Positions 1-33,735 of a DNA stretch of 64,000 nt are shown in pieces. The stretch is from an uncultured Gammaproteobacteria bacterium (lineage in GTDB: Bacteria > Patescibacteriota > Microgenomatia > UBA10105 > UBA927). The translations under genes were made by a program, and so were the position numbers. The notes beneath the pieces were generated by a model that made no database searches, had not been told where the DNA came from, and saw only the letters and a program-made list of their open reading frames with translations. The number at the start of each line of letters is the position of its first letter. Positions within the stretch are counted from its first letter, which is position 1. Where the stretch lies: assembly GCA_964639945.1 (NCBI GenBank), contig CAZXHY010000002.1, positions 183 to 64,182 of the forward strand, given 5' to 3'.

Positions 1-2
1 CA

Positions 3-518: not shown

Positions 519-645
519 AGTCTATAGCTAAATCCACGTGATTTTACACATATTTTACAGAGCTTGTAAGGATCACCACAAAAAAATCCACACAGTAGCG
601 CGGTATATAAACACACAATAAACAAGAGCAAAACGCCACGTTGTC

Positions 646-1038
646 TTACGGAGTCACTGTAACTGCGCCGATTATATACGGAGCCAAATGATCATGGACA
701 CCCCATGTTCCAGACTTGGTGAGTGTTACTTCCCACGTAGTGCCGGGTTTTATAGGCTGTTTAGGATCTAACTCAGAATAAAATGTGTGAGAAGGGTGCG
801 GATCAGATGCCGGCCAGTGCCAATACGTATCGCTATTCACAAATTTTATGGTAGAACCTACTGCCACCGTTATAGACTCTGGAGTGAACCCATCTTCCGT
901 GATAACTATCGTTTTACCATCAAGCTTCACTTGAGGCATCTTTTGTGCTTTATTTCTCTGTGATAGGCCAAAAACTACGCCGCTTCCCACAAGGCACACA
1001 AGCACTACTCCCCCAATAGCTACTATAGATTTTTTCAT
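646..1038 (-). CDS. Small membrane-anchored His-rich protein, cupredoxin-like fold suspected; probable start at MKKSIV
   Basis: N-terminal TM segment (IVAIGGVVLVCLVGSGVVFGL). The pattern TIVITEDGFTPESITVAVGSTIKFVN...WHWPASDPHPSH...WGVHDHLAPYIIGAVTV resembles single-domain cupredoxin-like proteins. Its ATG overlaps the upstream stop (ATGA) with gene 1035..2327. Confidence 0.55.
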   Translation of the reverse strand: MKKSIVAIGGVVLVCLVGSGVVFGLSQRNKAQKMPQVKLDGKTIVITEDGFTPESITVAVGSTIKFVNSDTYWHWPASDPHPSHTFYSELDPKQPIKPGTTWEVTLTKSGTWGVHDHLAPYIIGAVTVTP

Positions 1039-2327: not shown

Positions 2328-2387
2328 AAAATGATTATCGCGCTATGTATCTGATGAGTATACCACCGTTTATACACGGAATGGATC

Positions 2388-3302
2388 TCACCGCTGAAAT
2401 TCTTTGACACACAAATCTACATACTCGTTTGGCAACTGTCGACACTGCGACAAATCATGAGTATTTTGTTTTTTAGCGTCGTCAATAATTACATGCATCA
2501 AGGTTTTTATGCAGCTATTCCGAGTCTCATCATGCGTAAAATAAGAACAATATGTAGCTGATGATTTCGTATCATTATTATATTTACGCGCACGAATTGA
2601 AAGCATTTGCTCACGCACACAAGCTGGCTGATATAATAACGGAATCGAATCACAGGGATAATACACATTGTCGTTTGCCCAAGGAACCTCATGTAATCCA
2701 TGCAATATATCCCCCACTCTATTCACATTCTCGTGAGTCACCCCTATCCAACATTGATAGCGCTCATTTGTAGCACCAAATACCGCATCACAAAATTGTA
2801 GTGATTCTATATACCAATACTTGTTTAAAAGCATTATGGTATATCCAACTCCTTGTAAACATCGATCTTGAGAGCTGACCTGTGAGCTTTGCATACACTC
2901 ACTGGAGATCACGCGCATCGTGTCACTGGAGTATCCATGCACCTGCACAGCGCCCAACATGACTCCGTAATAACACGGAAGCGGATGGGTCAATGTATCG
3001 CAAAAACTATACGCCGCAGATCCAACGTGCTTGTAAGCACTCTCCCCTATGACAGGGATCAAATCGTGCAGAACTCCAATATCCTCTGAGCCCACGAGCC
3101 TACCCAATACTTCGTACGCGACACGTGGCGACATCTTCATCGAAATAAAATGAATTATTTGCCCTTTCACGGGTAAACGCATATCTAAAAAAACAGATGG
3201 TAATCGAAGCACATACAACGCTCCTATAAATCCTGCGGCAAATACACAAATCAACAGAATGACAATATATGGATATCGAGTTTTGTGTATATTTTTTTTC
3301 AT
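2388..3302 (-). CDS. Cys/His-rich paralog family member 2 (304 aa, short form)
   Basis: TM anchor. Carries IGESAYKHVG, CYYGVMLGAV, CLQGVGYTIM, CWIGVTHENV. Closest paralog is 5385..6431 (NVYYPCDSIPLLYQPACVREQ vs NVYAPCDTLPLAYQPACVREH). Confidence 0.8.
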   Translation of the reverse strand: MKKNIHKTRYPYIVILLICVFAAGFIGALYVLRLPSVFLDMRLPVKGQIIHFISMKMSPRVAYEVLGRLVGSEDIGVLHDLIPVIGESAYKHVGSAAYSFCDTLTHPLPCYYGVMLGAVQVHGYSSDTMRVISSECMQSSQVSSQDRCLQGVGYTIMLLNKYWYIESLQFCDAVFGATNERYQCWIGVTHENVNRVGDILHGLHEVPWANDNVYYPCDSIPLLYQPACVREQMLSIRARKYNNDTKSSATYCSYFTHDETRNSCIKTLMHVIIDDAKKQNTHDLSQCRQLPNEYVDLCVKEFQR

Positions 3303-3323
3303 AAAATAGTACGAACTATATGC

Positions 3324-4376
3324 TCATTTGGCATTAAAATCTGCTTTCATATTCTGCACTTCTTGCTCACATTGCACACGAAATTTCTCTTCTGTGACAC
3401 CGCATATGGCTAACGCTAATTTCCCACTTGGATCAATCACCAATGGCTGCACTATAGACCCAAGTAGACATGGCAGCTCTTGCTCGGTCACCATATGACA
3501 CACTGCAACGACTTGTTGTGGATCTGCTTGTACCTCTGCATACACCGCTCCACCCACCGCTTTTTCGCACTGTAGCTTCTCAAAATCAGGTAATGCCTGA
3601 CACACACGCATTCCTTTCTGAATAGATTTATGAAATGTATATGTCACCATCGCGCCATCATATATACATTTAAATCTAAACTGACTTGGGATCTTATTGC
3701 AGTAATCTATCACATCGTCTGGCAAAGAATTGGGTGTATGGGACATAGTCGGAGGACGAAATATCTCCATAAATACCCCACTTGCACAGTCACTCCGTGC
3801 GTCGTTTCCCGACAATTTTGTACAACGCAACAACGCATCCTCAACTCGATACCCAGCAAGTTCTGCAAATACATGTCCCAAGCCATGATGACATGCTATT
3901 TGCTGTATATGTGTTAATGTTTGGCCACCCGTTACCTCACACAACTCTGATACGTTATCCAATAATGATGGTTTTACCCTCACCCTACCAGCGATAACTC
4001 CATGTACGCATCCAAACTCACAACTTCGACCACACGCATTTACAAGGGTTGCCATCGAAGCATCTGTACGACTGGCAACTTCTCCGATTATATGTCCCAT
4101 ATCATGACACCCTAGAGAAAGTGGCATCGCAGAATCCTGATGATTTATATTTGTTGTTTCTATAACTCGCATGAGTCCCTGTACTACCATAGGCGATCGA
4201 ACATACGGGGAAAAAGAAAACTCTAAGCAAATTATACGTCGGCGCCCACTATGCTGGGCACACTGCGCGTACAAGGTTTCAATTCGCAAAACCGTCAGCG
4301 TTCTAGTATGTACCCCCCAAAATAAACCACAAAAAAATACAGCGCTGACAAAAAATGTCCCATATAATTGCCTCAT
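3324..4376 (-). CDS. Cys/His-rich paralog family member 3 (350 aa)
   Basis: TM anchor. Carries CHDMGHIIGE, FGCVHGVIAG, CHHGLGHVFAE, CASGVFMEIF. Overlaps the stop of 4373..5383 (ATGA). Confidence 0.85.
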   Translation of the reverse strand: MRQLYGTFFVSAVFFCGLFWGVHTRTLTVLRIETLYAQCAQHSGRRRIICLEFSFSPYVRSPMVVQGLMRVIETTNINHQDSAMPLSLGCHDMGHIIGEVASRTDASMATLVNACGRSCEFGCVHGVIAGRVRVKPSLLDNVSELCEVTGGQTLTHIQQIACHHGLGHVFAELAGYRVEDALLRCTKLSGNDARSDCASGVFMEIFRPPTMSHTPNSLPDDVIDYCNKIPSQFRFKCIYDGAMVTYTFHKSIQKGMRVCQALPDFEKLQCEKAVGGAVYAEVQADPQQVVAVCHMVTEQELPCLLGSIVQPLVIDPSGKLALAICGVTEEKFRVQCEQEVQNMKADFNAK

Positions 4377-5383
4377 AGATTCCGTGATGACTCGTCTAAA
4401 ATAATTTCACACGTCTTTTTAGAATCTTTTTCTTTTAACATAGAACACAGCGGTGCAACGCGCCAAGACTGATCAACGCTTTGATACGTTCTAAGTATTC
4501 CGATCATACATGAATCAGAGTAGTCTACGATTCCCGTGCACACAGGCACGGGATCTACACCATTGGATAGATACTGCTTTGCAGCAATTGCCCCAACTCC
4601 ATACAAACATCTCTCTAGCACAGTTGACTCGTTAAAATTTCTACAATACGCAACAAGCTCTGACATGGAAAAGGCATACTCATCTGTTATATATGTGAGA
4701 ACAAGCTCCACACACCCTGTTTTATAAATCGTAGGATACGAATCACACATTCGAATCAATGCACTATCATTACGCTCCGCGGGAAACAGAGAGGATCGAT
4801 AGGTATTGAAATATTCCATAAACACCCCAAGGCCACAATGCATTTGCTCGTTTGGTATGGGAAAAAATTTATCACACAACTTGAGAGCCTTTGGTATATC
4901 AAAATCTGCTAATGTTGCGCTGGCGTGCCCCAGTGGATCACTACAATTTGCACTACTTCGTGTCTGATGTATGCACGCATCGTATAATTTTTCTAAAAAT
5001 ACTGGATCTGGCCCATGAAGACGGGCCACATACTGAACAACTCCATGATAACAACCAAAATTATACTTCGTATCGCACATACCAATCGCCGAAAGTCCAT
5101 GTCTACGATAGGTTTCCTCGCCAATGTAGTGACCTATGATGTGCATCCATGGTAACTCCTGAGGAAACGCCTGTTTAAGTTCGATATTAACCAAAAACAT
5201 CGGCTGAGAGCGTACCATGGTATAAATAACTTCTTGCAATTCCTTTCCCTGCAACGAGCTCAAGACACTTGGAGTGATATGCGTTCGATAGAATGATACC
5301 CACCTATACATACCCACACCAACCCCTATGATCAGCACTATACAAAGGATGCGAATTGCCAGTGGTAATCGAATATGTTTCAT
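4373..5383 (-). CDS. Cys/His-rich paralog family member 4 (336 aa)
   Basis: TM anchor. Carries IGHYIGEETYRRHG, FGCYHGVVQY, GHASAT, CGLGVFMEYF. Closest paralog is 6507..7502. Confidence 0.85.
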   Translation of the reverse strand: MKHIRLPLAIRILCIVLIIGVGVGMYRWVSFYRTHITPSVLSSLQGKELQEVIYTMVRSQPMFLVNIELKQAFPQELPWMHIIGHYIGEETYRRHGLSAIGMCDTKYNFGCYHGVVQYVARLHGPDPVFLEKLYDACIHQTRSSANCSDPLGHASATLADFDIPKALKLCDKFFPIPNEQMHCGLGVFMEYFNTYRSSLFPAERNDSALIRMCDSYPTIYKTGCVELVLTYITDEYAFSMSELVAYCRNFNESTVLERCLYGVGAIAAKQYLSNGVDPVPVCTGIVDYSDSCMIGILRTYQSVDQSWRVAPLCSMLKEKDSKKTCEIILDESSRNL

Positions 5384-5384
5384 A

Positions 5385-6431
5385 TTATGGAACTCGCTGA
5401 TCCCCTATTGTATATAAACTATCCTTCGCTTCTTTAGCTCCTTTTTCACATGCACTCTGGTGTGCAGACGGGAGTACAGAACACAACTTATTGGCCATAT
5501 CAACACGACCAGAAAAAGCGTATTGGCGAGACGCCACTCCTATGCAATACGTGAAATACTGAGCAGGTACTTTCCCGCATTCTATAATTATTCTGTCGGG
5601 AGTCTGTGGATCATCTTGATACAGAGCCCCTCCAATAGCACCAAAACACTGCATTCGAATATCCTGATCATTGAAGTGCATACAATGCCCACTTGTTCGC
5701 ACGGTATCCCGATCATACAAAACGAGCCGTGCAAGAAACACATGTTCCCGCACGCAGGCCGGTTGATACGCGAGTGGCAGCGTGTCACAGGGAGCATACA
5801 CGTTTTTAGGATCTATAGGATTGGTTGCCAAGCCTGCTGGCAAATCCCCGCGACGAACGACGTTCTCCATAGAAACACCATCCCAACAAAAAAAACGCAA
5901 TTCGCGATCTTTCTCAAACACGCCGTCACATGCTTGATATGACTCAAGCAAATTATAATTTCGAACCCACATCAGGCCATGCCCAATTCCATGAGCACAA
6001 GAAATATCTGCTGTCCTATTTTTCCCTGCGTTCTCACACCCTTGTGCCAACTCTAGCAACACAGACTGTTGATATCCACGAGCACGTATTGCAGCAAGTA
6101 TCACTCCGTGATAACACGCAAACGTAAAAACAGAGTCACAATCACGAAAACCAGCAGTTCCGTAACGGGCGTATGCGGTCTCTCCAATCAAATGTGCAAG
6201 CTCATGCTCTTCGGCGGGTTGATCTGGATACGCTGCCAACAAAACATTTCGCAGACGCACAGGAGACACCTGCATTCCAATAGTGCGAAACATAGCCAAA
6301 CGTTTTTCTTTCGGCATCTCGCGGATTTGTCTCCCAAACAGACCGCTCATGTACCAATGCTGAGAGAAACCCACGCCTACCCCTAAGAAAAAAAATAATA
6401 CAATCAAAATAAATCGTTGCATATATCGCAC
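5385..6431 (-). CDS. Cys/His-rich paralog family member 5 (348 aa)
   Basis: TM anchor. Carries AHLIGETAYARYG, FACYHGVILAA, CAHGIGHGLMW, CWDGVSMENV. Confidence 0.85.
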   Translation of the reverse strand: MRYMQRFILIVLFFFLGVGVGFSQHWYMSGLFGRQIREMPKEKRLAMFRTIGMQVSPVRLRNVLLAAYPDQPAEEHELAHLIGETAYARYGTAGFRDCDSVFTFACYHGVILAAIRARGYQQSVLLELAQGCENAGKNRTADISCAHGIGHGLMWVRNYNLLESYQACDGVFEKDRELRFFCWDGVSMENVVRRGDLPAGLATNPIDPKNVYAPCDTLPLAYQPACVREHVFLARLVLYDRDTVRTSGHCMHFNDQDIRMQCFGAIGGALYQDDPQTPDRIIIECGKVPAQYFTYCIGVASRQYAFSGRVDMANKLCSVLPSAHQSACEKGAKEAKDSLYTIGDQRVP

Positions 6432-6506
6432 CTCTAGCCTATTCTACCTTCTTTGATCAATCCGTACGAAGTCCCACATCCCCTAGCCGCCCACTCGGAT
6501 CAATTA

Positions 6507-7502
6507 TTAATTCAGCTGGTCTGAAACCCGCGCTATCTTGATCTGGCACAACTCTTTATCTGCAAGAAGGGTTAATGCATCACAAACTATACGCGCATCG
6601 TGCAATTTATGTGCGGCAAGATATGGAACATTCACGCCAAAAGCACACCATGCAAAATCATTCCCTGCACCTTTACACACGGCAACTGCTTGCGCTGGAT
6701 CAGTAAAATACTTTTGCCCTATGATAGAGCCAGTCGCATCTACACAGTGTGTTCTGGTATCAAAACGATCGAACGTTTGACAATACCGTAAAACGCGGCC
6801 AAAATCTTCATTCCATATCGCCTTTAAATAAGAAATGTGCATACTCACGCATGAGCTTTCGTATTTACTAGGAAACGTATTACATGGAAAATACGGATTT
6901 TGAGTATTTCCATAATCAGTCCTTGGCGCGTTGGGGGCAGAACGATTTATATACTCCATCATGGCACCATTCCAACAAGAAAACGCTACCTTTGTGTCTG
7001 GATACATTTGGTCGCATAATTCAAACGCTTTGACGACATCATAAGAGGTGACGATCGCACTCGCGTGCCCTAATGGATGAATACAGGGGCTTGCATCAGC
7101 AAGGGTATCATCACAAGATTTTTTTAAATCAAACACCAATGTTTCATTCGGTCCAGCTATGCGTATTGCCATGTCCACCACGCCATGGTAACACCCATAA
7201 TTAAATAGTGGATCGCATAGACCAAATGCCTTGCTTCCATACCGCCTGTATACTTCTTCACCATATAAGTGTCCCACCCCATGCGAAATAGGCTCCTGCG
7301 CAGGATATACAACATCCAAAAAAGACCGCACTTCTGCAAGTGGCCTATTTGTGATTAACCATCCAAGGGTTGTGCGCATTTTGGCCCCATCCAACGCGCG
7401 AAATACATCAGGATTTGTATACTGTTGAAAACGTACGACAAAACTAGCAAAACCAACCAACAAGCCAAAACAGTAGGCTATCAAAATAACGTACCGATGC
7501 AT
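6507..7502 (-). CDS. Cys/His-rich paralog family member 6 (331 aa)
   Basis: TM anchor. Carries VGHLYGEEVYRRYG, YGCYHGVVDM, GHASAI, CWNGAMMEYI. Confidence 0.85.
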   Translation of the reverse strand: MHRYVILIAYCFGLLVGFASFVVRFQQYTNPDVFRALDGAKMRTTLGWLITNRPLAEVRSFLDVVYPAQEPISHGVGHLYGEEVYRRYGSKAFGLCDPLFNYGCYHGVVDMAIRIAGPNETLVFDLKKSCDDTLADASPCIHPLGHASAIVTSYDVVKAFELCDQMYPDTKVAFSCWNGAMMEYINRSAPNAPRTDYGNTQNPYFPCNTFPSKYESSCVSMHISYLKAIWNEDFGRVLRYCQTFDRFDTRTHCVDATGSIIGQKYFTDPAQAVAVCKGAGNDFAWCAFGVNVPYLAAHKLHDARIVCDALTLLADKELCQIKIARVSDQLN

Positions 7503-7505
7503 AAT

Positions 7506-8582
7506 CTACTTTACTCCTTTAATCTCACGAAGCCTTGCGAGAGCATACTTCATGCATGAGGGCTCTATATCTTGCCCTGTTTTTTTACATAATTGGACGG
7601 CCTGTACACCATCCCCATGGATAGATAACGATGACAAAACTGCTCCCTCAATGCATTTTTTTACGAACGGCCCAGCTAACAAACACTCATGTATGATGGC
7701 AGTGATATTCTCATGCTCCACAAAATACACATCTGACCCGATAGTTGAGATGCATTTGTCTTGGTCATCAGATAAATATGTACGACACAGGTCAAAGGCT
7801 GCCATTATATTATGTGTCCATCTATACTGTGTCGTGATCATCATTCGCATACAAAATGCGCGAGGTATATCTTCTAGCCCACCACAGTGTATAAAAAGAT
7901 CCTCTGGAATTGGCATTGGGTCATGCCCAAAATCAACCGGTGAATACACTTCCATAAATACACCCGTCCAACATTCTTGTTGCGCATCTACGGTACCCAG
8001 CCTATTACAATAGTCCATAGCATCACGAACTGAGTATCTTGCGTATTCTGCAAGACCGTGCCCAAGGCCATGGTAACAGGCAATTTTATCTGTTAAGTTT
8101 CTAGAATTCTTATTTGTTTCTTTACAAAAATTTTCAAGATTGTTTAACCCGTCATAATTCCGTTTTAATGCTCCCATTAGCACTCCATGTGTACATCCAT
8201 ATCCACACCTTGCACCACACGAGGAAATCAACTGGGAGGGATTTGCCTTTTCTGACGAACCAATCACCTCACCCACAAGATGAGAAAGCGCATGACAGTC
8301 ATATCCACTTTGTGTATCCGATGAACGGATAAGGGTATAATTTTTCTCCTCAAGCTCTTGCATTATGAGATTGAGATTTGACGAACCTACAATATGCCGA
8401 TACTCATCACGAAAACACGCTGAAGCTTCAACGCCAGAAACAGTTGCACATTTTTGTTGAACATGTTTCATTCGAAGCGATAACCCAAACTCAGTTCTAA
8501 ACACATATCCGTATATAAACCCCAGCAAAAAGCTAAAGAAAATAATCACTTCGAATATCCTTTTTGTGCTGATATACTTCAT
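7506..8582 (-). CDS. Cys/His-rich paralog family member 7 (358 aa), the clearest example of the fourfold signature
   Basis: TM anchor. Carries CHALSHLVGE, GCTHGVLMGA, CYHGLGHGLAE, CWTGVFMEVY. Confidence 0.85.
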   Translation of the reverse strand: MKYISTKRIFEVIIFFSFLLGFIYGYVFRTEFGLSLRMKHVQQKCATVSGVEASACFRDEYRHIVGSSNLNLIMQELEEKNYTLIRSSDTQSGYDCHALSHLVGEVIGSSEKANPSQLISSCGARCGYGCTHGVLMGALKRNYDGLNNLENFCKETNKNSRNLTDKIACYHGLGHGLAEYARYSVRDAMDYCNRLGTVDAQQECWTGVFMEVYSPVDFGHDPMPIPEDLFIHCGGLEDIPRAFCMRMMITTQYRWTHNIMAAFDLCRTYLSDDQDKCISTIGSDVYFVEHENITAIIHECLLAGPFVKKCIEGAVLSSLSIHGDGVQAVQLCKKTGQDIEPSCMKYALARLREIKGVK

Positions 8583-8585
8583 AAA

Positions 8586-9785
8586 CTACTGTGCAATACT
8601 CGTCATACAAGCATGCTTACTGGCAACACCAGAAACAGTTTGACACGCTTGTTTTCTGACAAAATCACCAAATCGCAAAAACAAAAACTCACCTGTCACC
8701 CTATAACAATGTTCTTGAAGAGACGAGGTGAGCATGGAGCATGCTGCTAAAGCGCGTTTTCCATACGTATCGTTTACGTTATCGATAATTGTACGTATAA
8801 AACCAGTGGTGCATTCTGGTGCATGAATATCCGGCAATTGATCACACTGCGAAATATCTTCAATCTTGTGGTGCCTGTTGTATATCGCCTCACCGACTCG
8901 ACTACGACACTTAGTACGTGCATCGAGCGGTGATGCATCGCAAATATCAAAAGCATGTATCGCTTGATTCGTAAGTCCGTACTGAGTAAATCCTATAAAC
9001 TCAAAACAAGAAAGCTCCACCTTCCCAGAAAGTGACGCGCAATACGCTAATAATTTTTCAGGCGTGATAGATATCTCACTGTTTTGCATGGGTTCCATAA
9101 AGATTGCGTGTGCACACTGATACCGAGCCTCATCATTTGGCATAACCAAACACTCTGATACAGCACGCTGAAAATCATTTCCATTCTTCTCACGCAAGCC
9201 ATGACCAATGCCATGATAGCAGCCCATACGCGCAGGTTCTGGTATAGAAGGAGTAGAACATTTAGCTGACGCCTCAGTAACATTTTGTGACATAAGCACC
9301 CATGTGTGACCCGCACCATTCATGCATCCCAAATCTATACCATCGATTGGTTCTCTCCCGTCTCCAAAGTCACACAATCCAATACACTGAGTCATAAGAA
9401 CATCTGAGGGTGTACCAAACCTTGCTGCTGCATTTCCTATTTCATGTGCGAGCGCATGACATCGCATACCCTGTAAGTAAGAACCATTTGATGTTCTCAT
9501 GTAGGAACGGAGCGCTGAAATCGTAGAGGCAATCCCATAAGATCTCACCATACCCACAACTTCCTTAAAATAACATCGCTGTCTTGGTGTTCCCTCAAAA
9601 AAATCGGCGCCTGCATACCTTTCACACGAAACAAACCGCGATCGAAGCACTGAAGCAAGCGAAGCGTGTCGCAGCACTGGAACGGAAATAAACCATCCAA
9701 GTCCCGACATCAATCCAAAAGAAAACATTACGGCCATAGCTAGCCTTCGCAACCGATGTATTTGTTGTGTTCTATTTTTTTGCAT
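8586..9785 (-). CDS. Cys/His-rich paralog family member 8 (399 aa)
   Basis: TM anchor. Carries CHALAHEIGN, GCMNGAGHTW, CYHGIGHGLRE, CAHAIFMEPM. Confidence 0.85.
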   Translation of the reverse strand: MQKNRTQQIHRLRRLAMAVMFSFGLMSGLGWFISVPVLRHASLASVLRSRFVSCERYAGADFFEGTPRQRCYFKEVVGMVRSYGIASTISALRSYMRTSNGSYLQGMRCHALAHEIGNAAARFGTPSDVLMTQCIGLCDFGDGREPIDGIDLGCMNGAGHTWVLMSQNVTEASAKCSTPSIPEPARMGCYHGIGHGLREKNGNDFQRAVSECLVMPNDEARYQCAHAIFMEPMQNSEISITPEKLLAYCASLSGKVELSCFEFIGFTQYGLTNQAIHAFDICDASPLDARTKCRSRVGEAIYNRHHKIEDISQCDQLPDIHAPECTTGFIRTIIDNVNDTYGKRALAACSMLTSSLQEHCYRVTGEFLFLRFGDFVRKQACQTVSGVASKHACMTSIAQ

Positions 9786-11424
9786 ATATCATTTGGTAAA
9801 CATTGTATCGCACGGTACTATCTACCAACTTGGCTTCTTTAGGCAAATCTCGCGACCCAACATACCTCTTGTCTACTACAAACATCTTTTGGCTCGCCTT
9901 TCTGCCCATGAGCGACTCGCCAGTACTTCCCCAAGTAGTGACGCCATTAAATGTTTCAGGCATCCTCGCAGGATATAATTCTATAAAATAAAGCATTTCA
10001 TACGTGTACGGGCTTTCATACGTTCCTTCGTGGTATTTATATACAACGAGATCATATGGGTCTTCCTTGGCATGGTGAGCGATCATCCACGACACCGTTT
10101 TTAAGTCTTTATACGCCCAGTCAACTTCGCTATGTTTCCATAAATAATCTCGTATCACCACCATGTTGAGAAAGGTAAATATATATATACACACGACCAC
10201 AACTACTCTCCATACAAATGTTCGCTGCTGCAGCGCTCGCACACAAAAATACGCAAAACAAAGCAAAAACATGGGCAACGCAAATACCATATTATTCATT
10301 CGTGAAAAATCATTAATCACCTGATCCACGTACAAGTACTCCACAAACATAGCTACCGGTAAACACATAAGCCACCATGAAATCACAAGCGGCCAGTATT
10401 TCCCATTCGCGACATGCTCAAGCTCCATCTTCTTTCTATTTAGAAAACGAGTGTTGAGCACATAGACTCCAGTGCCTACCCACGTAGTAAAAAGTGCTAA
10501 CGGCCATATGCGAGACCCCACATATTCCAATATCGCTTTTATATACAGTTCAGAAAGGATCGAAACACCTAGGGCAGATTTTACAAATCCCCACATACCA
10601 TCACCAATCGAGGATATAGTCGGGAGTGACGTGTATGCCACATGAGACAACGCCTTCACCATGCGAAAATTCTCAAACACTTCAGTAAGCACAGTTGGCG
10701 CGATTGGAACGAAAGCAAATATAGCAAGCAGCGCTAGCTGAAACCACCCACGTGGCAAACTAGGCTTATAAAAAAACAGTGCAGCTCCAAAAAATACTAA
10801 GGGCACAAATCCAGAGTCATGCACCTGTGAACCGAGAGACATCGATAAAATAAGCGGATACCACCAAATCACTTTTCCGCCAATAACTCGTAAAAAACTT
10901 ACGAGCGACAATAAAGAAAAAAATGGCACCATACTCGGCGTCCATATCCACCTACTGTACGCTGACAACCAAAACGATATTGCCCCAAAAAAAGCAGCGA
11001 CCACACCTACCGCCCTACTTCCAAACAGCAAAACTCCTGCATCATAGAGCATGTAGACAACACACAGACCCAAAAGTATCAAAAATAACACCACGCCATA
11101 CGGCTCAAACTGTGCAATCACAGCAGCTGGTAACAGTAAGTAATAGTACGCGATTCCGTGATAGATGGGATTAGACTCTTCAGGGGCTAAATATGAAGAT
11201 CTATACGTCCCCATTTGTCCTTTTATGGGTAAATTTTGTAGATTTCCTGACGACATATCTCTCCAGATTGTACGAACGGAAAGCATATCGTCGACCTGCT
11301 CTTTCCAAAACGGTATGTACACATTGGATTGATATAGTCGTATGAACGCAGATAGCAATAAAACACCTATCAATATCCACTGATATATCTGTATACCCCT
11401 CATTCGCCACATGTATTTGCGCAT
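9772..11424 (-). CDS. Polytopic membrane glycosyltransferase, GT-C fold (ArnT/PMT-like, lipid-carrier dependent), embedded in the Cys/His-rich array
   Basis: 550 aa with more than 10 predicted TM helices. The acidic DD motif (KEQVDDML) sits in the first extracytoplasmic loop after TM1, as in GT-C enzymes. The soluble C-terminal domain overlaps the downstream gene by 14 nt. Confidence 0.65.
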   Translation of the reverse strand: MRKYMWRMRGIQIYQWILIGVLLLSAFIRLYQSNVYIPFWKEQVDDMLSVRTIWRDMSSGNLQNLPIKGQMGTYRSSYLAPEESNPIYHGIAYYYLLLPAAVIAQFEPYGVVLFLILLGLCVVYMLYDAGVLLFGSRAVGVVAAFFGAISFWLSAYSRWIWTPSMVPFFSLLSLVSFLRVIGGKVIWWYPLILSMSLGSQVHDSGFVPLVFFGAALFFYKPSLPRGWFQLALLAIFAFVPIAPTVLTEVFENFRMVKALSHVAYTSLPTISSIGDGMWGFVKSALGVSILSELYIKAILEYVGSRIWPLALFTTWVGTGVYVLNTRFLNRKKMELEHVANGKYWPLVISWWLMCLPVAMFVEYLYVDQVINDFSRMNNMVFALPMFLLCFAYFCVRALQQRTFVWRVVVVVCIYIFTFLNMVVIRDYLWKHSEVDWAYKDLKTVSWMIAHHAKEDPYDLVVYKYHEGTYESPYTYEMLYFIELYPARMPETFNGVTTWGSTGESLMGRKASQKMFVVDKRYVGSRDLPKEAKLVDSTVRYNVYQMIYAKK

Positions 11425-11428
11425 AATG

Positions 11429-12697
11429 TTAGTATTTCAACGTTTTCCCATCCAAACAAGCATTTCTATATAGTACCGATACCTGCTCACAAATTTGATT
11501 CTTTTCATTTTTTGTTTTTCGCTCTTCCAAAACGCCTCCTATAATCGAAAAGCATCGAAGCTGCTCAGATACATCAAGGCTTTGACATAACTGTATACCT
11601 GTTTTTACGTTTGGCTCGACAAACACTGATGATCGTATAAGTCCAGCGATACAAGCGAAATACATATCTGGCTCTGCCAGCTTACAAAATGCTTGAATTT
11701 CTTGTAAATATTCTTCTTTATGTTGATACACATAAAATATATTCTGCCCTATACCACTTACACATGTCTCTCTATACAACTCGGGGACTTGTCTACAGAC
11801 GCTAAACGATTTTTGGTTATCTTGTGCCCTACTGTACTCATACGAACCCGCACGATCATAACAATATGCATCGTATGGAGACCATAACGCGCCACACCAC
11901 ATTGGATTGTTATTAGGAATTTGTTGCGGAGCTTGCGCAAACGTCGCCGCTTCATACATTTCCATAAAAACCCCAGCTGCACATCCAATACGCCCTTCTG
12001 GAATGATCTGATCACAAAGCTTAAGTGATTCAACCAAATTGTATGCTGACACGTCCGCAACTGCATGCCCCACCTCATGGAAACACCCTCCTTGTGCTTC
12101 ACGATTTCCTGCCCAATCGACACCATCTATGCATAGCGTTGTTATTGTGCTTTTTAAATCATTTCCCATTCCATACCATGCAGAAACCGCTCCGTGCTGA
12201 CAACCGGACACGCACGCATTGGTACACTGAGGTAAAGTTATTTGCACACGACGACTTGTCATAGTACCCGCCCAGCCAATCGCATGAGCAAGATCATGAC
12301 ATTGCGTAAAATTTCTACCTGTTGTTTGTGCGTCTAACCGACGCGTAAGCGCTTGCATAAACGTCCTCGTCCCCCACTTAGGCATATCTGCCAGAAGTTT
12401 TTTTTGTGCACAAATCATAAATTTTGTTCGGTCCGCATCATTACCCCTAAAGCACTGCTCTATCGCGTGTTGCAATGCTAGATCTGCTCCGATTACTCGC
12501 CACTCAATAGGGCGTGGTCCAAATCGATATGAGAAGTTATTAAATGCTACAAACCCACTCACAATTGAAAAAAGGCATACTACACCTATTAAAAATTTCG
12601 ATGGAAAAAAATTCATTCGTTTCATTATACTCGAGTGCCACGAGGGAATATGTATGCTACTGAATAAAATCCGTCTGCACTTCATACACACAAGCAT
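11429..12697 (-). CDS. Cys/His-rich paralog family member 9 (422 aa; true start possibly at internal MKRMNFF, nt 12625)
   Basis: Carries CHDLAHAIGW, SGCQHGAVSA, CFHEVGHAVAD, CAAGVFMEMY. The TM anchor FLIGVVCLFSIVSGFVAF follows the internal Met. Confidence 0.8.
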   Translation of the reverse strand: MLVCMKCRRILFSSIHIPSWHSSIMKRMNFFPSKFLIGVVCLFSIVSGFVAFNNFSYRFGPRPIEWRVIGADLALQHAIEQCFRGNDADRTKFMICAQKKLLADMPKWGTRTFMQALTRRLDAQTTGRNFTQCHDLAHAIGWAGTMTSRRVQITLPQCTNACVSGCQHGAVSAWYGMGNDLKSTITTLCIDGVDWAGNREAQGGCFHEVGHAVADVSAYNLVESLKLCDQIIPEGRIGCAAGVFMEMYEAATFAQAPQQIPNNNPMWCGALWSPYDAYCYDRAGSYEYSRAQDNQKSFSVCRQVPELYRETCVSGIGQNIFYVYQHKEEYLQEIQAFCKLAEPDMYFACIAGLIRSSVFVEPNVKTGIQLCQSLDVSEQLRCFSIIGGVLEERKTKNEKNQICEQVSVLYRNACLDGKTLKY

Positions 12698-13667
12698 CGT
12701 AACGCTCTGGAAGCACCTGACGACAATAATCTTGAATATTCACTCTTTGTGCTTGAGTGAGCGGGTACACAAAATATAGTCCGCGACCGATAAATGTTAA
12801 ACAATCAAATTGATATTCTTGTGGTTCCTTTCTGCATATAGCGATAGCAGCATCGAGATTTTGTGTTCGGGTATATTCAAAAAATCCTGACGCAGCATAA
12901 CAAACCTCATCATACGGCGCCTCAAACCGTGCGCACCAATTTGGTCTATCCTGTGGTAGCTCTCGAAGCACGCCGTTACTATACTCTGTCCCATCGTATA
13001 CCTCCATAAATACACCAGAACCGCAATTAGACCTATCCTTCATATCATATATATTGCAATACTCAAGCGAGCGCAGTACGTCATATGATCCCATGGGGGT
13101 AATAGCGTGCCCAATTCCATGAATGCAAGAATATTTCTTCTCTCCGGAAATACCAGGGGTCAAACAAATCGAAGTAAAATTCTTGCCTAATGATTCACCC
13201 TTGGTGACCCACCCTACCGAAGCACCATGGAAGCATCCTGACTGACAAAGATCAGTGCACGCCGTAAGTATCTCTTTCATACCGACACCCAACAACACCG
13301 CATTCTTTCCAAGTTGATGTGTGACATCATGACACCGAGTTACCGCTAGATCAGTCTTGGGCTGTGTAGCTCGCCTTTCCGTAGTAGCAATAACAAGGGG
13401 CTCCAATCCCCAACGAGGAATTTCCTTTGATATCTCATTGCTGAGGCATCGAACGATGGCAGATCTATGCTTAGGCAAATCACACACCGTAACGATTCGA
13501 GCCATTGCAGCGTTTGCTCCTGCTTGGCGTACGCGTGCGCTATGTGGTCCGATTCGAATAGAAAATGACCAAAATATCAGAAATCCTAACGAAAAAACAA
13601 TAATAGTAGCCACCACAAAAAATCCTACGCGCCGAACGTGCATTCGGCTATCCATGAAGTTGTGCAT
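12657..13667 (-). CDS. Cys/His-rich paralog family member 10 (336 aa)
   Basis: TM anchor. Carries CHDVTHQLGK, SGCFHGASVG, CIHGIGHAIT, CGSGVFMEVY. Sister of 11429..12697. Confidence 0.85.
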   Translation of the reverse strand: MHNFMDSRMHVRRVGFFVVATIIVFSLGFLIFWSFSIRIGPHSARVRQAGANAAMARIVTVCDLPKHRSAIVRCLSNEISKEIPRWGLEPLVIATTERRATQPKTDLAVTRCHDVTHQLGKNAVLLGVGMKEILTACTDLCQSGCFHGASVGWVTKGESLGKNFTSICLTPGISGEKKYSCIHGIGHAITPMGSYDVLRSLEYCNIYDMKDRSNCGSGVFMEVYDGTEYSNGVLRELPQDRPNWCARFEAPYDEVCYAASGFFEYTRTQNLDAAIAICRKEPQEYQFDCLTFIGRGLYFVYPLTQAQRVNIQDYCRQVLPERYDACVYEVQTDFIQ

Positions 13668-13693
13668 ATGGGAAGAAAAAAACAGAAACTACT

Positions 13694-14407
13694 TCAATAA
13701 ACACGATAAAATCCAACAATCGTTCCATCACAGGATATCGCATATGCACCCTGATTTTGGGAAAGTAGCACAGAAACCATTTGCTTTGGCGTCAGCGTTT
13801 TGGATACCTGATCAAACATAACCGTGTGTTCTCCTGTTGCAGTGCTTACGACAGACAAATTCTGTCCCTGCTTTACTCGAATAAACGGAGGGTTTATTTC
13901 ACAGGTATCGGCTACTGTGATACTTTTTACATTTACTGCCAACGTGTTGATTGCTTCAACAAATACTTTTTTTTCTTCATCTGTGGCTCCCTGCAACGGC
14001 ATACTTATGAAACTTCCTCGCACAACAACAAGCTTCGTGTTTGCTGCTGGGGCAACTGTTGTGTTCTTTTCATTGGTAAATGTTGGCCATTTCCAAACCA
14101 TGGACACTTTTGGCAATGCAATTGTCGGCATCAGGCTTCTTATTTTATCAGTGTTAATGGATATACGAGGCAAGGATGGTAAAATTGGCATATGGGCAGC
14201 GACATATTCACCGCTCAAATTCCCTAAATAAAATACAAATACATATACTATTCCCCATCCCAACCATTTTAAAATTCTGCGCCACATTGGAATACGGGTG
14301 GACACATCAGAAACATTTTTTGATAGAGCGCCTAACCGAGAAATATTATTCTTTCCTACAGCGAGATTAGAACGATTACGCATTTGTTTTTTTATCATAC
14401 ATTTCAC
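13694..14407 (-). CDS. Hypothetical membrane-anchored protein (237 aa)
   Basis: Long ORF with a single TM segment (WLGWGIVYVFVFYLGNL) and a C-terminal extracytoplasmic domain. No recognisable motifs. Confidence 0.6.
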   Translation of the reverse strand: MKCMIKKQMRNRSNLAVGKNNISRLGALSKNVSDVSTRIPMWRRILKWLGWGIVYVFVFYLGNLSGEYVAAHMPILPSLPRISINTDKIRSLMPTIALPKVSMVWKWPTFTNEKNTTVAPAANTKLVVVRGSFISMPLQGATDEEKKVFVEAINTLAVNVKSITVADTCEINPPFIRVKQGQNLSVVSTATGEHTVMFDQVSKTLTPKQMVSVLLSQNQGAYAISCDGTIVGFYRVY

Positions 14408-14442
14408 TCATTTACCACAACTTAATCCATAGTATATCACGA

Positions 14443-15057
14443 CTATTGTATAGTCAATTTTGTAATAATCGAGTGACCAAAATAATCACTTGCTAAAGCA
14501 TCTTTGGGACTATCGAGGCTAGTAATATTTAACTGCCCGTCTCCATTGTCATGGTACAGCGCCACATATAAAGAAGACCCACTGCGAAATGTTGACACAT
14601 CTTTGTATACCATGTGCGCATTGTCGGCTTTCAACTGAATATTGGTGTACACACCCGGAAGCAGCAAACCAGATGCTGCGACAGGGTCTCGCATACCAGA
14701 ATCATACTCTACACCCAAAAATAAAACGAGGTATCCTGACTTCTGTAACATAGCCTTCCCCACCACATACTGATTTCGGTCAAATTCCTTACTTGAGTAT
14801 GTGATATATTCTGACCGAAAAATATGTCTACTTATAAGCTGTCGCCAAGCAAACCATGTGTCGTTTGAGAGAAATAAGAAAAAAAGAAACACTGTTACGA
14901 GCGAAATGGTGCTAGAAATCAAAAAAATGACGAGCCATGACTTGGGCCCATCAGCCTTTAGCTGACTTACACGCTGCTTCTCAGGGGCGACTCCCCCACT
15001 CATGGCTGTTTGAGTGACGGGTGTTATCGGTGATACAACCGGTACAGGTTCAGGCAT
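14443..15057 (-). CDS. Membrane-anchored protein with a Pro/Val-rich N-terminal tail (204 aa); paralog of 15064..15675
   Basis: N-terminus MPEPVPVVSPITPVTQ, one TM helix, and a ~130-aa C-terminal domain. Architecture is shared with the adjacent gene. Confidence 0.6.
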   Translation of the reverse strand: MPEPVPVVSPITPVTQTAMSGGVAPEKQRVSQLKADGPKSWLVIFLISSTISLVTVFLFFLFLSNDTWFAWRQLISRHIFRSEYITYSSKEFDRNQYVVGKAMLQKSGYLVLFLGVEYDSGMRDPVAASGLLLPGVYTNIQLKADNAHMVYKDVSTFRSGSSLYVALYHDNGDGQLNITSLDSPKDALASDYFGHSIITKLTIQ

Positions 15058-15063
15058 ATAGCA

Positions 15064-15675
15064 TTATTTAGTAACTCCAATTACAGTTTTTGCAAAAATT
15101 CTATCTCCATTCTTATCGGTAACAAAAATTGGATTTTTAAATTCACCAGATCCATCAGTATCATATGCGATGGTAACTATGACCTGTGTTTTGGGAGGTA
15201 ACGCTGGTTGATCCGTCGTACCGTCAAGGTTAGTCATCGTAATGTTAGGTATCCGGATAGTTGCGTTTGACACAGTACCTTGGGGTAAATAATCAGAAAC
15301 ACCAAAAACCTCATTGCAGTTTTTATCATTGGGGAAATACACCGCAGAGACGACGATCCATCCAGGCTTTCGAAGTCGTGCTTTGTGCACGATAATATCA
15401 AAATAATCATCTCCCATCACCCCCGCATCAGCCACGATATATTCACGCCCCGTTATATATTGGGCCACAACGCCTTTCCACCAATACCACGGTTCCAAAG
15501 GCATAATGACCAAAATAGTCAAAAGCAAGATAATATTCACTAATCCAGAAACAATCCATGGCGTCAACCATCTCACAGTCACAGGGGGAGTATTTTTTGA
15601 AACAGCGCTAACTGCCGGTGAAGCATTTACCAAAGAAGAAGCAACTGGAACCACAGGAGTAGCGGGCGCGTCCAT
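15064..15675 (-). CDS. Membrane-anchored protein with a Pro/Ala/Val-rich N-terminal tail (203 aa); paralog of 14443..15057
   Basis: N-terminus MDAPATPVVPVASS...PPVTVRW, one TM helix, and a C-terminal beta-rich-looking domain. Confidence 0.6.
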   Translation of the reverse strand: MDAPATPVVPVASSLVNASPAVSAVSKNTPPVTVRWLTPWIVSGLVNIILLLTILVIMPLEPWYWWKGVVAQYITGREYIVADAGVMGDDYFDIIVHKARLRKPGWIVVSAVYFPNDKNCNEVFGVSDYLPQGTVSNATIRIPNITMTNLDGTTDQPALPPKTQVIVTIAYDTDGSGEFKNPIFVTDKNGDRIFAKTVIGVTK

Positions 15676-15758
15676 AGTGGATTCAATCGTACCTTGGTAA
15701 TCGTCGTATTGTCAATTTAGCCATCTACGATTTACACTCGAATTGGCTACGCTTTCCC
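15676..15758. promoter_or_regulatory. Divergent intergenic region. Likely holds promoters for the long minus-strand operon (15675 down to 646) and the plus-strand GT-C gene
   Basis: This is the only non-coding gap of more than 80 nt between divergently oriented gene starts in this part of the window. It contains ttgtca...tacact-like elements, and no hexamers were confidently assigned. Confidence 0.25.
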
Positions 15759-17354
15759 TTGCTCAACGACAACTCTATGAAACAACAAAAAAATACCACC
15801 CTTGTTCATTGGATTTTTTTTATACTTCTTATCTTTAGTATCGGATTTCACTTCTCATTTCTCTCTTCTCTGTACAGATTGGATGATGGAGACACCGCAC
15901 GAGATTATATGGTAGCCAGACATATAGCGCTGTATCAGCAATACCCCACAATAGGACCCAACAATGCTATATACGATTCTGCGCGAGCCAGCCCGCTCTA
16001 CTACTATCTCCTCTCAATCCCAATCCTTATAAATGACAGCATCTACAGTATAGGAGTGCTTAACATTTTATTACAGGCGCTCAGCATCCTCTTTCTTTAT
16101 GCATTAGCGTATATACTTTTTGGACCCACGACAGCGATCCTTACTGCCCTACTACTCTTGTTGAACCAAGAACTTTTCTCTCAATCATTCTATATGATAC
16201 AAGCCCATTTTGGTCATGTTTTTTTTAATGGAAGCTATGCATTTTTAGCATATAGTTACATACGAAAATCACGCATATCGCTCTATATATCTGCGATATT
16301 TTTTTCTTTAGGTTGCATTGTTTCCTTTCATGGTTTTCCGGCGCTGCTCGGATACCTCATTATCATTTATCTTATTTTACGATCACAAAAAGCATCATTA
16401 CAGCGCATCCTTTCTGTGTATGGAACCATGGCATTACTTGTATTATTCTTTTATACACCAACGCTCATAAATATAATCACCTCACGCAACGCATTGTTTC
16501 TAGTGAAAGAACCAGTATATATACAAACACTCAATGACTTCCCAATTCGCGTGATCAGTAATATACGTCTTGCCTTAAACGACTGGATGACATCACTCTG
16601 GCTTCTTCCTCAAATAAAAAATGCGTTGCTTGGGATACTCTGTGTCAGCCTCATACGATTCATGATCTGGGAAAAGACAAAATTAACCCGCATAATCACC
16701 ATTGTTATATTGGCGTATCTTTCCCAAGTTGGATTTTTTGCCGCGCTACTACGCACAGAAACCAACTCTTATCAATACGACGCAATAACGGGACTTGCCG
16801 TGATACTACTCGCATTCTCCGCAGGCTCTACTTGGCCAAAAAATCTTTTTGGTCGCATAGCAAGCATGCTATCAATCATCGGCCTCATGTTCTTGGTCAT
16901 ACCTACACATGGATATATACAATGGCAACAGTTACAAATGTCTCAACCTCAAAAATTAGAATCAAAGCTCGAACCATTGTTTCGCTATATAGATGAACAA
17001 AAAGTCATTCACCCAACCGACTGGAGCAAACGATTTCAAATTGCCATGTATAATGGTCGCGCGAACATGTATCACTGGAAAGAGTCGGTTATTTGGAATG
17101 CACTAGAACATCGATATACCACGCCGTTCGTTCGAGTAGTCAACACTGGCTACAATTACACGCCGCTTGCCACCAGTGAGACTCGGTATATTCTCATATG
17201 TGAAGAATATACATCTCTCCAAGACGCAACAAATCGATGTATCTCTTCATTCATGCAAAAGCGTGAGGATTCAACATACGTAATTCGCGTGATTTCTGAT
17301 AATAGCCCTCATGGATATATCATATATACAGCACAGCACGATCCCGCTAAATGA
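15759..17354 (+). CDS. Polytopic membrane glycosyltransferase, GT-C fold; paralog of 18597..20279
   Basis: 531 aa with about 12 TM helices. The DDGD motif (YRLDDGDTARDYMVARH) follows TM1. Confidence 0.65.
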   Translation: MLNDNSMKQQKNTTLVHWIFFILLIFSIGFHFSFLSSLYRLDDGDTARDYMVARHIALYQQYPTIGPNNAIYDSARASPLYYYLLSIPILINDSIYSIGVLNILLQALSILFLYALAYILFGPTTAILTALLLLLNQELFSQSFYMIQAHFGHVFFNGSYAFLAYSYIRKSRISLYISAIFFSLGCIVSFHGFPALLGYLIIIYLILRSQKASLQRILSVYGTMALLVLFFYTPTLINIITSRNALFLVKEPVYIQTLNDFPIRVISNIRLALNDWMTSLWLLPQIKNALLGILCVSLIRFMIWEKTKLTRIITIVILAYLSQVGFFAALLRTETNSYQYDAITGLAVILLAFSAGSTWPKNLFGRIASMLSIIGLMFLVIPTHGYIQWQQLQMSQPQKLESKLEPLFRYIDEQKVIHPTDWSKRFQIAMYNGRANMYHWKESVIWNALEHRYTTPFVRVVNTGYNYTPLATSETRYILICEEYTSLQDATNRCISSFMQKREDSTYVIRVISDNSPHGYIIYTAQHDPAK

Positions 17355-18588: not shown

Positions 18589-18596
18589 ATACCTGA

Positions 18597-20279: not shown

Positions 20280-20303
20280 GTTTTACAAAAGGAAGGCGCC
20301 GAC

Positions 20304-21761: not shown

Positions 21762-21766
21762 ATTTG

Positions 21767-24380: not shown

Positions 24381-24402
24381 ATAGGGAAAAACTATTCAAT
24401 CA

Positions 24403-26120: not shown

Positions 26121-26144
26121 ATCTAATTTATTAGCTGTGACTAA

Positions 26145-26870: not shown

Positions 26871-26942
26871 TATGGTACAAAACCAACAGCCCTGATTCCA
26901 TCACCCTCATGAGCGAGAACCACCAATGGGTATTTTCTATAT

Positions 26943-27989: not shown

Positions 27990-28009
27990 TGATATATGCT
28001 TGTACACGA

Positions 28010-30213: not shown

Positions 30214-30362
30214 ACTCGAAGCATAAATGTATTTACAAGATAACTTCTATGGCCATACATAGGCACTCTCTATATCGTTGTATTTTCGTCCAGCGAGATG
30301 CACAACATTTGTGGATACAAACAGAACAAAAAAACTCATCATGTGAAAAACGATATGCCGTA

Positions 30363-30896: not shown

Positions 30897-30899
30897 ATA

Positions 30900-31622: not shown

Positions 31623-31693
31623 TTGGAGTATAGTACGATGTTTACATCTTTTTCACAATTGTGGTTTCGCTTAGTGCGAAATAGAATACAACA

Positions 31694-33716: not shown

Positions 33717-33735
33717 GATTGACTCATCTACATAT

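Follow-up and report, generated by a model that had tools for sequence, protein, structure and literature searches.

A predicted GT-C-fold membrane glycosyltransferase encoded within a conserved array of genes for Cys/His-rich, predicted solenoid proteins in Patescibacteria

Results

Genetic Organization of the Array

We analyzed in silico a 64,000-nucleotide stretch of contig CAZXHY010000002.1 (GenBank assembly GCA_964639945.1, forward-strand positions 183 to 64,182), referred to in the following as the window, whose minus strand carries a gene (9772..11424) for a 550-amino-acid, PMT_2/ArnT-like membrane protein with a predicted GT-C fold, a putative glycosyltransferase (GT). This assignment draws on an open reading frame (ORF) with an ATG start codon, an AlphaFold2 model, the structural matches of that model found with Foldseek, and the PMT_2 matches of the protein's relatives. 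The GT gene is embedded in an array of ten ORFs of 300-430 amino acids, each rich in cysteine and histidine (13-23 Cys and 9-14 His per protein), that constitute one paralogous family as judged by all-against-all BLASTP (20-32% pairwise identity; E-values down to 1e-60). Since a hidden Markov model (HMM) of this family matches all ten flanking ORFs (E 1e-93 to 1e-120), no foreign gene other than that of the GT interrupts the array (13667 to 1035). The original prediction for this DNA had described it in this way; the family itself extends beyond the ten genes considered there and totals 12 members in the window.

Two family members precede the GT gene on the minus strand, the first member of the array (12657..13667; family HMM E 2e-103) and the one directly upstream of the GT (11429..12697; E 1e-119, also found by BLAST with its paralogues). 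Directly downstream lies the family member that we modeled (8586..9785), which has orthologues at the same position in all loci, and it is followed on the same strand by seven others (7506..8582, 6507..7502, 5385..6431, 4373..5383, 3324..4376, 2388..3302, and 1035..2327; E 1e-93 to 1e-113). A gap of 4 nucleotides separates the GT gene from its upstream neighbor, and its stop codon overlaps the start of the downstream family member by 14 nucleotides. Most other junctions in the operon, whether gaps or short overlaps, measure 1-35 nucleotides; there are also two gaps of 60 and 75 nucleotides and one annotated overlap of 41 nucleotides.

Conserved Linkage of the GT Gene to the Array

The genomic contexts of GT homologues and of family members were scanned with two HMMs, one for the GT subfamily and one for the Cys/His-rich family. 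A GT of the subfamily was flanked by family members in ten out of ten loci (the window, L001, L002, L003, L023, L024, L025, L026, L027, and L032), of which L003 derives from Candidatus Woesebacteria. This pairing was found at L026, whose GT is only 25% identical to that of the window; at L027, where the GT is a fragment at the contig edge; and at L032, where the GT scores 168 bits and the gene order is rearranged. In the eight syntenic loci that cover the upstream side of the GT gene, two to five array members precede it; L027 is truncated on this side, and L032 has a rearranged order. Absence of the GT gene from orthologous arrays had been named in the original prediction as an outcome that would speak against it, and no array covering the GT position lacks the gene; L030 and L031, distal halves of arrays that end at contig ends, were left out of this count. 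At the 19 loci with more distant GT-C proteins (22-58 bits), no family member lies within 10 kb. The GT is tandemly duplicated at L002 (8347..11653) and at L025 (8853..12102), and the subfamily HMM gives these paralogues scores of 710-797 bits.

An exhaustive HMMER search with the GT of 1.84 billion representative sequences returned only 41 proteins at E ≤ 1e-30; at the looser limits of E ≤ 1e-10 and E ≤ 1e-3, it returned 571 and 1980, respectively. A scan of JGI metagenomes with the GT alignment gave no confirmed match. The subfamily is small, rare, and unannotated; the NCBI label of the Woesebacteria orthologue reads 'hypothetical protein', and the relatives of the GT come from Woesebacteria/Patescibacteria. 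Because the subfamily comprises only 41 proteins at E ≤ 1e-30 and the adjacency holds at all ten loci, its distribution tracks that of the array. Genetic dedication of the GT to the Cys/His-rich family is therefore firmly supported, and the two very probably work together. The gene linkage shows a functional tie that fits two roles of the family alike, that of glycosylation acceptors and that of partners or adaptors of the GT.

The GT Is a Divergent Member of the PMT_2/ArnT-like Group

The GT reading frame is a real gene, since full-length homologues exist; in a collection of 5.8 billion sequences we found 13 at 40-58% identity, one at 25% identity, and two marginal PMT_2 proteins. An alignment of the GT with 13 homologues (n = 14) contains 47 invariant positions and was used to build an AlphaFold2 model with a mean predicted local distance difference test score (pLDDT) of 81.4 and a predicted template-modeling score of 0.84. 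The first transmembrane helix of the model (residues 13-30) is followed by a 60-residue loop that holds an amphipathic helix (residues 41-58) and then by about 12 more membrane helices as far as residue 429, about 13 in total from residue 13 onward; a conservative hydropathy screen picks out eight strongly hydrophobic segments. The C-terminal residues 438-550 (9775..10113, minus strand) form a soluble alpha/beta domain, as originally predicted, with a pLDDT of 82-93 and with Y479, P489, and N493 conserved in the 14-sequence alignment and in an alignment with 40 wider relatives. The N-terminus is rich in Lys and Arg (four among residues 1-12), and further clusters of these residues occur at positions 220-226 and 328-340. 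From these loop charges, the N-terminus is predicted to be cytoplasmic, so that loop 1 and the C-terminal domain would lie outside, an N-in/C-out topology.

When the model was compared with the PDB by Foldseek, ranks 1-36 were all occupied by GT-C-fold proteins, with a probability of 1.0 for the first 24. ArnT (5f15 and 5ezm; E 3e-5, probability 1.0) headed the matches, which included yeast and human STT3, AglB, PglB, ALG12, ALG3, Pmt1/2/4, DPY19, AftB, EmbB/C, AftD, and PIG-U. The sole non-enzymes among these 36 best entries are three of PIG-U, a GT-C-like subunit of the glycosylphosphatidylinositol (GPI) transamidase, and transporters enter the list only at E > 0.4. Template-modeling scores (TM-scores) to GT-C structures are modest (0.35-0.49), as is expected between GT-C families. 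The model thus firmly supports a GT-C fold, and the non-GT fold that had been considered as a contrary outcome did not appear among the 36 top-ranking structures.

At the sequence level, Pfam and NCBIfam gave nothing above noise for the GT itself, and PMT_2 did not match even at E ≤ 1. Searches of PDB sequences with GT profiles (the GT with 13 homologues, or the wider relatives) yielded no relevant match, ArnT 5ezm included, and we accordingly did not classify the GT as an ArnT (GT83) by sequence homology. In contrast to the GT itself, 37 of the 40 wider relatives (E down to 3e-18) and 5 of 14 close homologues match Pfam PMT_2 (PF13231), and 4 of the 40 wider relatives match Pfam PMT. This firmly supports placing the GT, as a divergent branch, among the GT-C proteins of the PMT_2/ArnT-like kind, with a PMT_2 membership that is transitive, via relatives. 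Together with the fold matches and the number of membrane helices, these data bear out the earlier description of the protein as a polytopic ArnT/PMT-like GT-C enzyme with at least ten transmembrane helices. Three other identities were rejected: an oligosaccharyltransferase (STT3/PglB/AglB, GT66), because the WWDYG motif is absent and the sequence contains no WWD anywhere; a classical PMT (GT39), because no MIR or other Pfam domain was found and the model has no large beta-trefoil loop; and a recent duplicate of two neighboring PMT_2 genes, because hhalign comparisons of the GT profile with both were not significant.

The first extracytoplasmic loop carries an acidic motif, E42-Q43-V44-D45-D46 (11287..11301, minus strand; translated as EQVDD), which is a putative catalytic or metal-binding site. 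The original prediction had noted a DD motif in this loop, and D45 and D46 are indeed invariant in the 14 close homologues. Among the 40 wider relatives, an acidic residue occupies position 42 in 39 and position 46 in 35, while D45 is present in 10 and so is confined to close orthologues; more distant relatives read 'GDEARD', the canonical GT-C 'DE' motif. Since the acid at position 42 is kept in 39 of 40 relatives and D45 in only 10, it is E42, and not the noted pair, that is probably the counterpart of the canonical catalytic aspartate. Other positions invariant in the 14-sequence alignment are Y88-H89-G90, Y93-Y95, the block Y156-S-R-W-I-W-T-P-S164, Q200, E248, and N420; when both alignments are considered, E/D42, D46, R158, W161, Q200, H202, E248, and N420 are conserved.

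The Cys/His-Rich Proteins Are Predicted Solenoids

The AlphaFold2 model of the 8586..9785 product, built from a 42-sequence alignment, has a pLDDT of 92.7 and describes an all-alpha solenoid with 24 helices after an N-terminal transmembrane helix. A Foldseek comparison of this model with the PDB yielded generic HEAT/ARM/TPR proteins, none of them significant (best E 0.015), so that any solved fold beyond a generic solenoid was rejected. Known repeat families were likewise rejected at the sequence level; the family had no match in Pfam (including TPR and Sel1), nor among PDB sequences searched with the family profile. In a third round of word-indexed searching, the 42-sequence family alignment added only two new members. 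Our searches of Pfam, the PDB, and the literature found no match, and the solenoid family is previously undescribed.

Family-wide sequence statistics were taken over 90 members from all loci. The spacing between Cys residues alternates between 11-12 and 22-25 residues, which corresponds to one Cys pair per helix hairpin of about 34 residues. The 90 proteins contain no CxxCH motif and only four CxxC motifs, and a heme or Fe-S protein identity was rejected on these grounds. This Cys spacing, together with the lack of CxxCH and the near lack of CxxC, suggests disulfides in an extracytoplasmic fold. Conservation reaches 86% or more for H110, H114, H191, H195, M230, several Gly residues, and six or seven Cys pairs; in the alignment of the array members, Cys pairs, H110, and H195 are invariant. 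An N-terminal transmembrane segment is present in 88 of the 90 proteins. In the 8586..9785 product this anchor comprises residues 15-37, and a Gly within it is invariant among the ten array paralogues; a GxxxG sequence, a possible intramembrane packing motif, occurs in 49 of the 88 anchors. We infer that the family members are TPR-like repeat proteins that lie outside the cytoplasm, are stapled by disulfides, and may contain a metal site. That their ectodomains face the same compartment as the active-site loop of the GT is firmly supported.

Genes Bounding the Array and a Possible Role of Metals

The array forms the central part of an operon that has DUF7282 genes at one end and a cupredoxin gene at the other. 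Apart from a few gaps of 26-75 nucleotides and some overlaps, its genes lie close together on the minus strand (15675 to 646), in the order two DUF7282 genes, a gene for an anchored cupredoxin-like protein, two family members, the GT, eight family members, and a gene for a Cupredoxin_1 protein. The two membrane-anchored DUF7282 proteins at the head of the operon (14443..15057 and 15064..15675, both minus strand; Pfam PF23951, E 6e-4 and 9e-7 for the two genes) have syntenic counterparts at L002, L024, and L026. Ahead of their transmembrane anchors they carry N-terminal tails of about 35 residues rich in Pro, Ser, Thr, and Val; these tails are the only tracts in the operon that resemble O-glycosylation sites, and the positive-inside rule predicts them to lie on the cytoplasmic side. 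The next gene (13694..14407, minus strand), just before the array, encodes a 237-amino-acid membrane-anchored protein with a weak likeness to cupredoxins (Pfam Cu-oxidase, E 0.022, below threshold), and a syntenic gene for about 220 amino acids takes this position at L001, L002, L023, and L024. The operon ends with the gene for a membrane-anchored Cupredoxin_1 protein (646..1086, minus strand; Pfam PF13473, E 1e-6), which contains no Cys, and so no type-1 copper site, but has the His-rich motifs HWPASDPHPSH and HDH. A cupredoxin is found at the same terminal position at L002, L024, L027, L030, and L031, and in a different arrangement at L032 and L026. The most divergent array, L026, is accompanied (1..3000 and 14834..15220) by genes for a three-domain multicopper oxidase, a CobW-type metallochaperone GTPase, and two cupredoxins.

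One may ask on this basis whether the operon is first and foremost an extracytoplasmic copper or redox system, in which the solenoids bind metal together with the cupredoxins and the GT-C-fold protein has no catalytic or glycosyl function, serving, for instance, as a PIG-U-like membrane scaffold. H110, H114, H191, H195, and M230 are invariant or nearly so, proteins with a cupredoxin domain border the array at most loci, the multicopper oxidase and the CobW protein accompany L026, and PIG-U is among the fold matches of the GT. Nevertheless, we consider this explanation highly improbable. The acidic motif of the first extracytoplasmic loop, R158, H202, and E248 are conserved in the GT, which argues for a working GT-C active site; the terminal cupredoxin of the window lacks the Cys ligand of blue-copper sites; and metal binding by the solenoids is itself conjectural. 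A metal role of the solenoids would, moreover, be compatible with the GT being a glycosyltransferase. The flanking cupredoxins, the multicopper oxidase and CobW genes at L026, and the conserved His/Met cluster do suggest a separate, metal-related role of the solenoids that is not in conflict with an active GT.

Solenoid Proteins as Candidate Acceptors or Partners of the GT

In the explanation that we favor, the GT would be co-transcribed with, and translationally coupled to, the N-terminally anchored solenoid proteins and would glycosylate them. About 11 kb upstream of the GT gene lies a GT2 gene (22945..23727, minus strand; Pfam Glycos_transf_2) whose product resembles polyprenyl-phosphate sugar synthases and is a candidate maker of the donor; phmmer searches against the PDB matched it to dolichol-phosphate mannose synthase (DPMS; 5mlz, E 3e-23), ArnC (E 7e-9), and GtrB (5ekp; E 7e-8). 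Enzymes of the DPMS/ArnC/GtrB type make polyprenyl-phosphate-sugar donors for GT-C proteins. This GT2 may load a sugar onto polyprenyl phosphate, possibly an amino sugar because a DegT aminotransferase gene adjoins the GT2 gene. The lipid-linked monosaccharide would then be flipped across the membrane, and the GT would transfer the sugar at the outer membrane face to the co-encoded solenoids as they emerge, held beside the enzyme by their own transmembrane anchors. This scheme is modeled on ArnB/C/T and GtrA/B/V-type systems (PMC11127046). The type of donor, catalysis by the GT and, most of all, which molecule serves as the acceptor are matters of inference. That the solenoid proteins themselves are the acceptors is, by analogy, a plausible but tentative part of the explanation.

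Several findings weigh against it. The sequences of the 90 family members show none of the usual signs of acceptors. Ser/Thr- or Pro-rich linkers, which the original prediction had proposed to look for, and low-complexity stretches are missing (the median maximum is 6 Ser/Thr/Pro residues per 15 residues); N-x-S/T sequons are not in excess (134 observed versus 137 expected); and not a single alignment column contains at least 50% Ser/Thr, which means that there is no family-wide acceptor site. The earlier proposal that the Cys/His-rich proteins are glycosylation acceptors thus receives no support from such sequence signs. Furthermore, a crude hydropathy screen of the window ORFs of at least 90 amino acids revealed no candidate for a small flippase with multiple transmembrane segments. 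The invariant His4/Met cluster suggests an independent, possibly metal-binding function of the family. Two divergent solo family members (L028/L029 and L033) have no subfamily GT in their flanks of about 6-10 kb. Finally, the window encodes many other GT-C proteins, so that the clustering of envelope-glycan genes provides a background explanation for the presence of the GT.

The lack of acceptor-like features is what one would expect if the solenoids were instead trans-acting, membrane-anchored, TPR-like subunits that bind the GT and present another acceptor to it, such as a surface protein or a wall glycopolymer. TPR domains of TfpW, of the TMTC proteins, and of many bacterial PMT_2 proteins perform this role in cis, and at least ten paralogues could confer at least ten specificities. 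The helix hairpins of about 34 residues match the periodicity of TPR and Sel1-like repeats, while the GT has a small C-terminal domain (about 110 amino acids) and no repeat domain of its own. TfpW has a periplasmic TPR domain, a PMT_2-TPR fusion is present at L033, and the conserved Gly of the anchors and their GxxxG sequences are compatible with intramembrane packing. However, we rejected the existence of a 'Rosetta stone' fusion of GT and solenoid, since none occurs among the 41 closest subfamily representatives, all of which have at most 546 amino acids. An invariant His/Met cluster is unusual for TPR adaptors, and neither the Pfam searches for TPR and Sel1 nor the insignificant Foldseek matches tie the family to known repeat proteins. 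On balance, an adaptor role appears possible to us, if somewhat less probable than an acceptor role.

The GT Gene Lies Next to a Glycosylation Island

The part of the window from 15759 to 54440 constitutes a large glycosylation island with 13 large polytopic membrane ORFs besides the GT, eight of which have PMT_2, GT87, DUF2079, or YfhO matches in Pfam. These eight comprise four PMT_2 genes (at 15759, 18597, 36868, and 41359), two GT87 genes (at 17347 and 50254), a DUF2079 gene (at 20304), and a YfhO gene (at 38506); the other five (at 33736, 35279, 42941, 47786, and 52092) encode 530-780 amino acids and lack a Pfam match. The island also contains three DegT aminotransferase genes, at least seven GT2 genes, several methyltransferase genes, and a gene for a dTDP-sugar epimerase. 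Both family members found outside the array are interleaved here with GT2 and methyltransferase genes: the eleventh (24403..25467, minus strand; family HMM E 1e-49) and a more divergent twelfth (26943..27989, plus strand; E 1e-17, no Pfam match). A GT-C gene is, therefore, not rare in the window, and the special feature of the GT subfamily is its fixed position in the array.

With its many large polytopic ORFs, three DegT, and at least seven GT2 genes, such an island could also mean that the GT decorates a non-protein acceptor, be it a wall or membrane glycopolymer or a glycolipid, and sits in the array through co-regulation, with no direct tie to the solenoids. It is general knowledge, reflected in reviews (PMC8035078, PMC11127046), that the characterized bacterial PMT_2/ArnT/YfhO-type enzymes mostly modify lipids or polymers, and the solo family members that have no GT nearby fit this explanation as well. 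It is at odds, however, with the embedded position of the GT gene, which is kept down to 25% identity (L026) and through rearrangement (L032), with reading frames that overlap or nearly abut. No other GT-C protein shows such a linkage, and family members never occur near GT-C proteins from outside the subfamily. We therefore regard this explanation as unlikely.

Other features of the window lie outside the operon. The GT87 gene mentioned above (50254..52119, plus strand) encodes a fusion of a GT87-like membrane domain with an NPCBM/NEW2 carbohydrate-binding domain (E 6e-32) at the C-terminus. A 3158-amino-acid ORF (54448..63924, minus strand) has no Pfam match at E ≤ 1e-3 and possibly encodes a giant surface protein. 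At the opposite end, a 143-amino-acid ORF (87..518, plus strand), also devoid of Pfam matches, has an aromatic-proline repeat at its end (AFYPAFYPAFYPAFYPTFSP). Across the window (1..64000), all 2-kb bins have a negative GC skew (-0.08 to -0.24), and most genes are on the minus strand; since the skew does not switch, the window contains neither a replication origin nor a terminus.

Discussion

The fold and the presumed chemistry of the GT are of a type already known; what is new are the GT subfamily and its solenoid partner family, the latter defined here by a 34-residue repeat with a Cys pair, a His4/Met cluster, and a confident structural model. In the literature on Patescibacteria and the candidate phyla radiation (CPR) concerned with GT-C proteins, cysteine-rich proteins, or cupredoxins, we found no description of the solenoid family or of its linkage to a GT, and we know of no earlier report of a GT gene at a fixed position within such an array. 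In CPR/Patescibacteria, GT-C enzymes and uncharacterized surface proteins take up a large share of the tiny genomes, and we know of almost no GT-C protein from these bacteria with an assigned acceptor. Through its strict gene linkage, the locus gives a GT-C subfamily a concrete and testable set of partners.

As a speculative and somewhat doubtful synthesis, Woesebacteria-like Patescibacteria might possess a hitherto overlooked, self-contained surface module, placed between cupredoxins, in which one GT-C protein serves 10-12 rapidly diversifying, membrane-anchored, TPR-like solenoids that are stapled by disulfides and have a His/Met cluster, with which they possibly bind copper; the enzyme would either glycosylate folded repeats at non-canonical sites, or the solenoids would be interchangeable subunits for acceptor recognition. 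With the solenoids as acceptors, this would amount to a lineage-specific protein glycosylation system whose targets are folded helical repeats; with the solenoids as adaptors, it would be a split form of the GT-C-TPR design of TMTC and TfpW proteins. The GT locus is a solid lead for protein glycosylation or for GT-C/adaptor biology in Patescibacteria, and it is not surprising in principle.

Comparison with Known Systems

ArnT (GT83; 5ezm and 5f15) resembles the GT in its cytoplasmic N-terminus, its approximately 13 transmembrane helices, the acidic residue that a juxtamembrane helix carries in the first periplasmic loop, and its C-terminal periplasmic alpha/beta domain of about 110 amino acids. 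Moreover, the DegT aminotransferase and the ArnC-like GT2 encoded nearby echo ArnB and ArnC. The two proteins differ, however, in that no sequence similarity is detectable between them and the TM-score is about 0.4; the acceptor of ArnT is lipid A, whereas the GT of the window is embedded in a protein-family array. To our knowledge, Patescibacteria are generally held to lack lipopolysaccharides.

PMT enzymes use polyprenyl-phosphate-monosaccharide donors and act on secreted proteins. With the PMT_2/PMT (GT39) group the GT shares an acidic pair after the first transmembrane helix and the Pfam matches of its relatives (PMT_2 in 37 of 40, PMT in 4 of 40). It departs from this group by scoring below every Pfam threshold, by having no MIR domain, and by an altered 'DE' motif that reads E42-Q43 and is followed by an additional D45-D46. 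The usual targets of PMT enzymes are Ser/Thr-rich disordered regions, which the candidate solenoid acceptors lack.

The solenoid family may be compared with the Helicobacter Hcp proteins, which are secreted Sel1-like helical-hairpin repeat proteins with one disulfide per repeat. Unlike Hcp, the family matches no Sel1 or TPR entry in Pfam and no PDB sequence, and it is set apart by its Cys spacing of 11-12 residues, the N-terminal transmembrane anchor, and the His4/Met cluster. TMTC1-4 (GT105) are eukaryotic GT-C proteins with TPR domains that O-mannosylate cadherins. They parallel the window in the combination of a GT-C protein with helical repeats of about 34 residues and in the dedication to one membrane-anchored protein family; their repeats are fused and lumenal, however, their acceptors are beta-strand cadherin domains, and there is no sequence relationship.

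Three-component systems (GtrA/GtrB/GtrV, CsbB/GtcA/YfhO, ArnC/ArnEF/ArnT, and GT136) encode a GT-C protein and a polyprenyl-phosphate sugar synthase of the GT2 type within one region (PMC11127046), a pairing that the window shares, with a candidate synthase. In contrast to these systems, a small flippase gene was not recognized in the window, and the gene for the putative synthase lies some 11 kb from the GT gene and would supply an island that contains many GT-C genes; the known systems decorate polysaccharides or teichoic acids. TfpW of Pseudomonas aeruginosa is a GT-C protein encoded directly downstream of pilA that glycosylates the corresponding pilin, and it possesses a 'DDX' motif, a cytoplasmic N-terminus, 11 transmembrane helices, a periplasmic C-terminal domain, a periplasmic TPR domain, and helical hairpin repeats of about 34 residues (bioRxiv 10.1101/2020.04.19.049825). 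In TfpW/TfpO systems, as in the array, the gene for a membrane glycosyltransferase adjoins that of its partner, an adjacency that we found in ten out of ten loci for the GT. TfpW differs from the GT in serving a single pilin, compared with a solenoid family of 10-12 members, and in carrying its repeats fused to the enzyme, and the two proteins are not related in sequence. By analogy, TfpW nonetheless offers a precedent both for solenoids that would be acceptors of the GT and for solenoids that would act as its adaptors.

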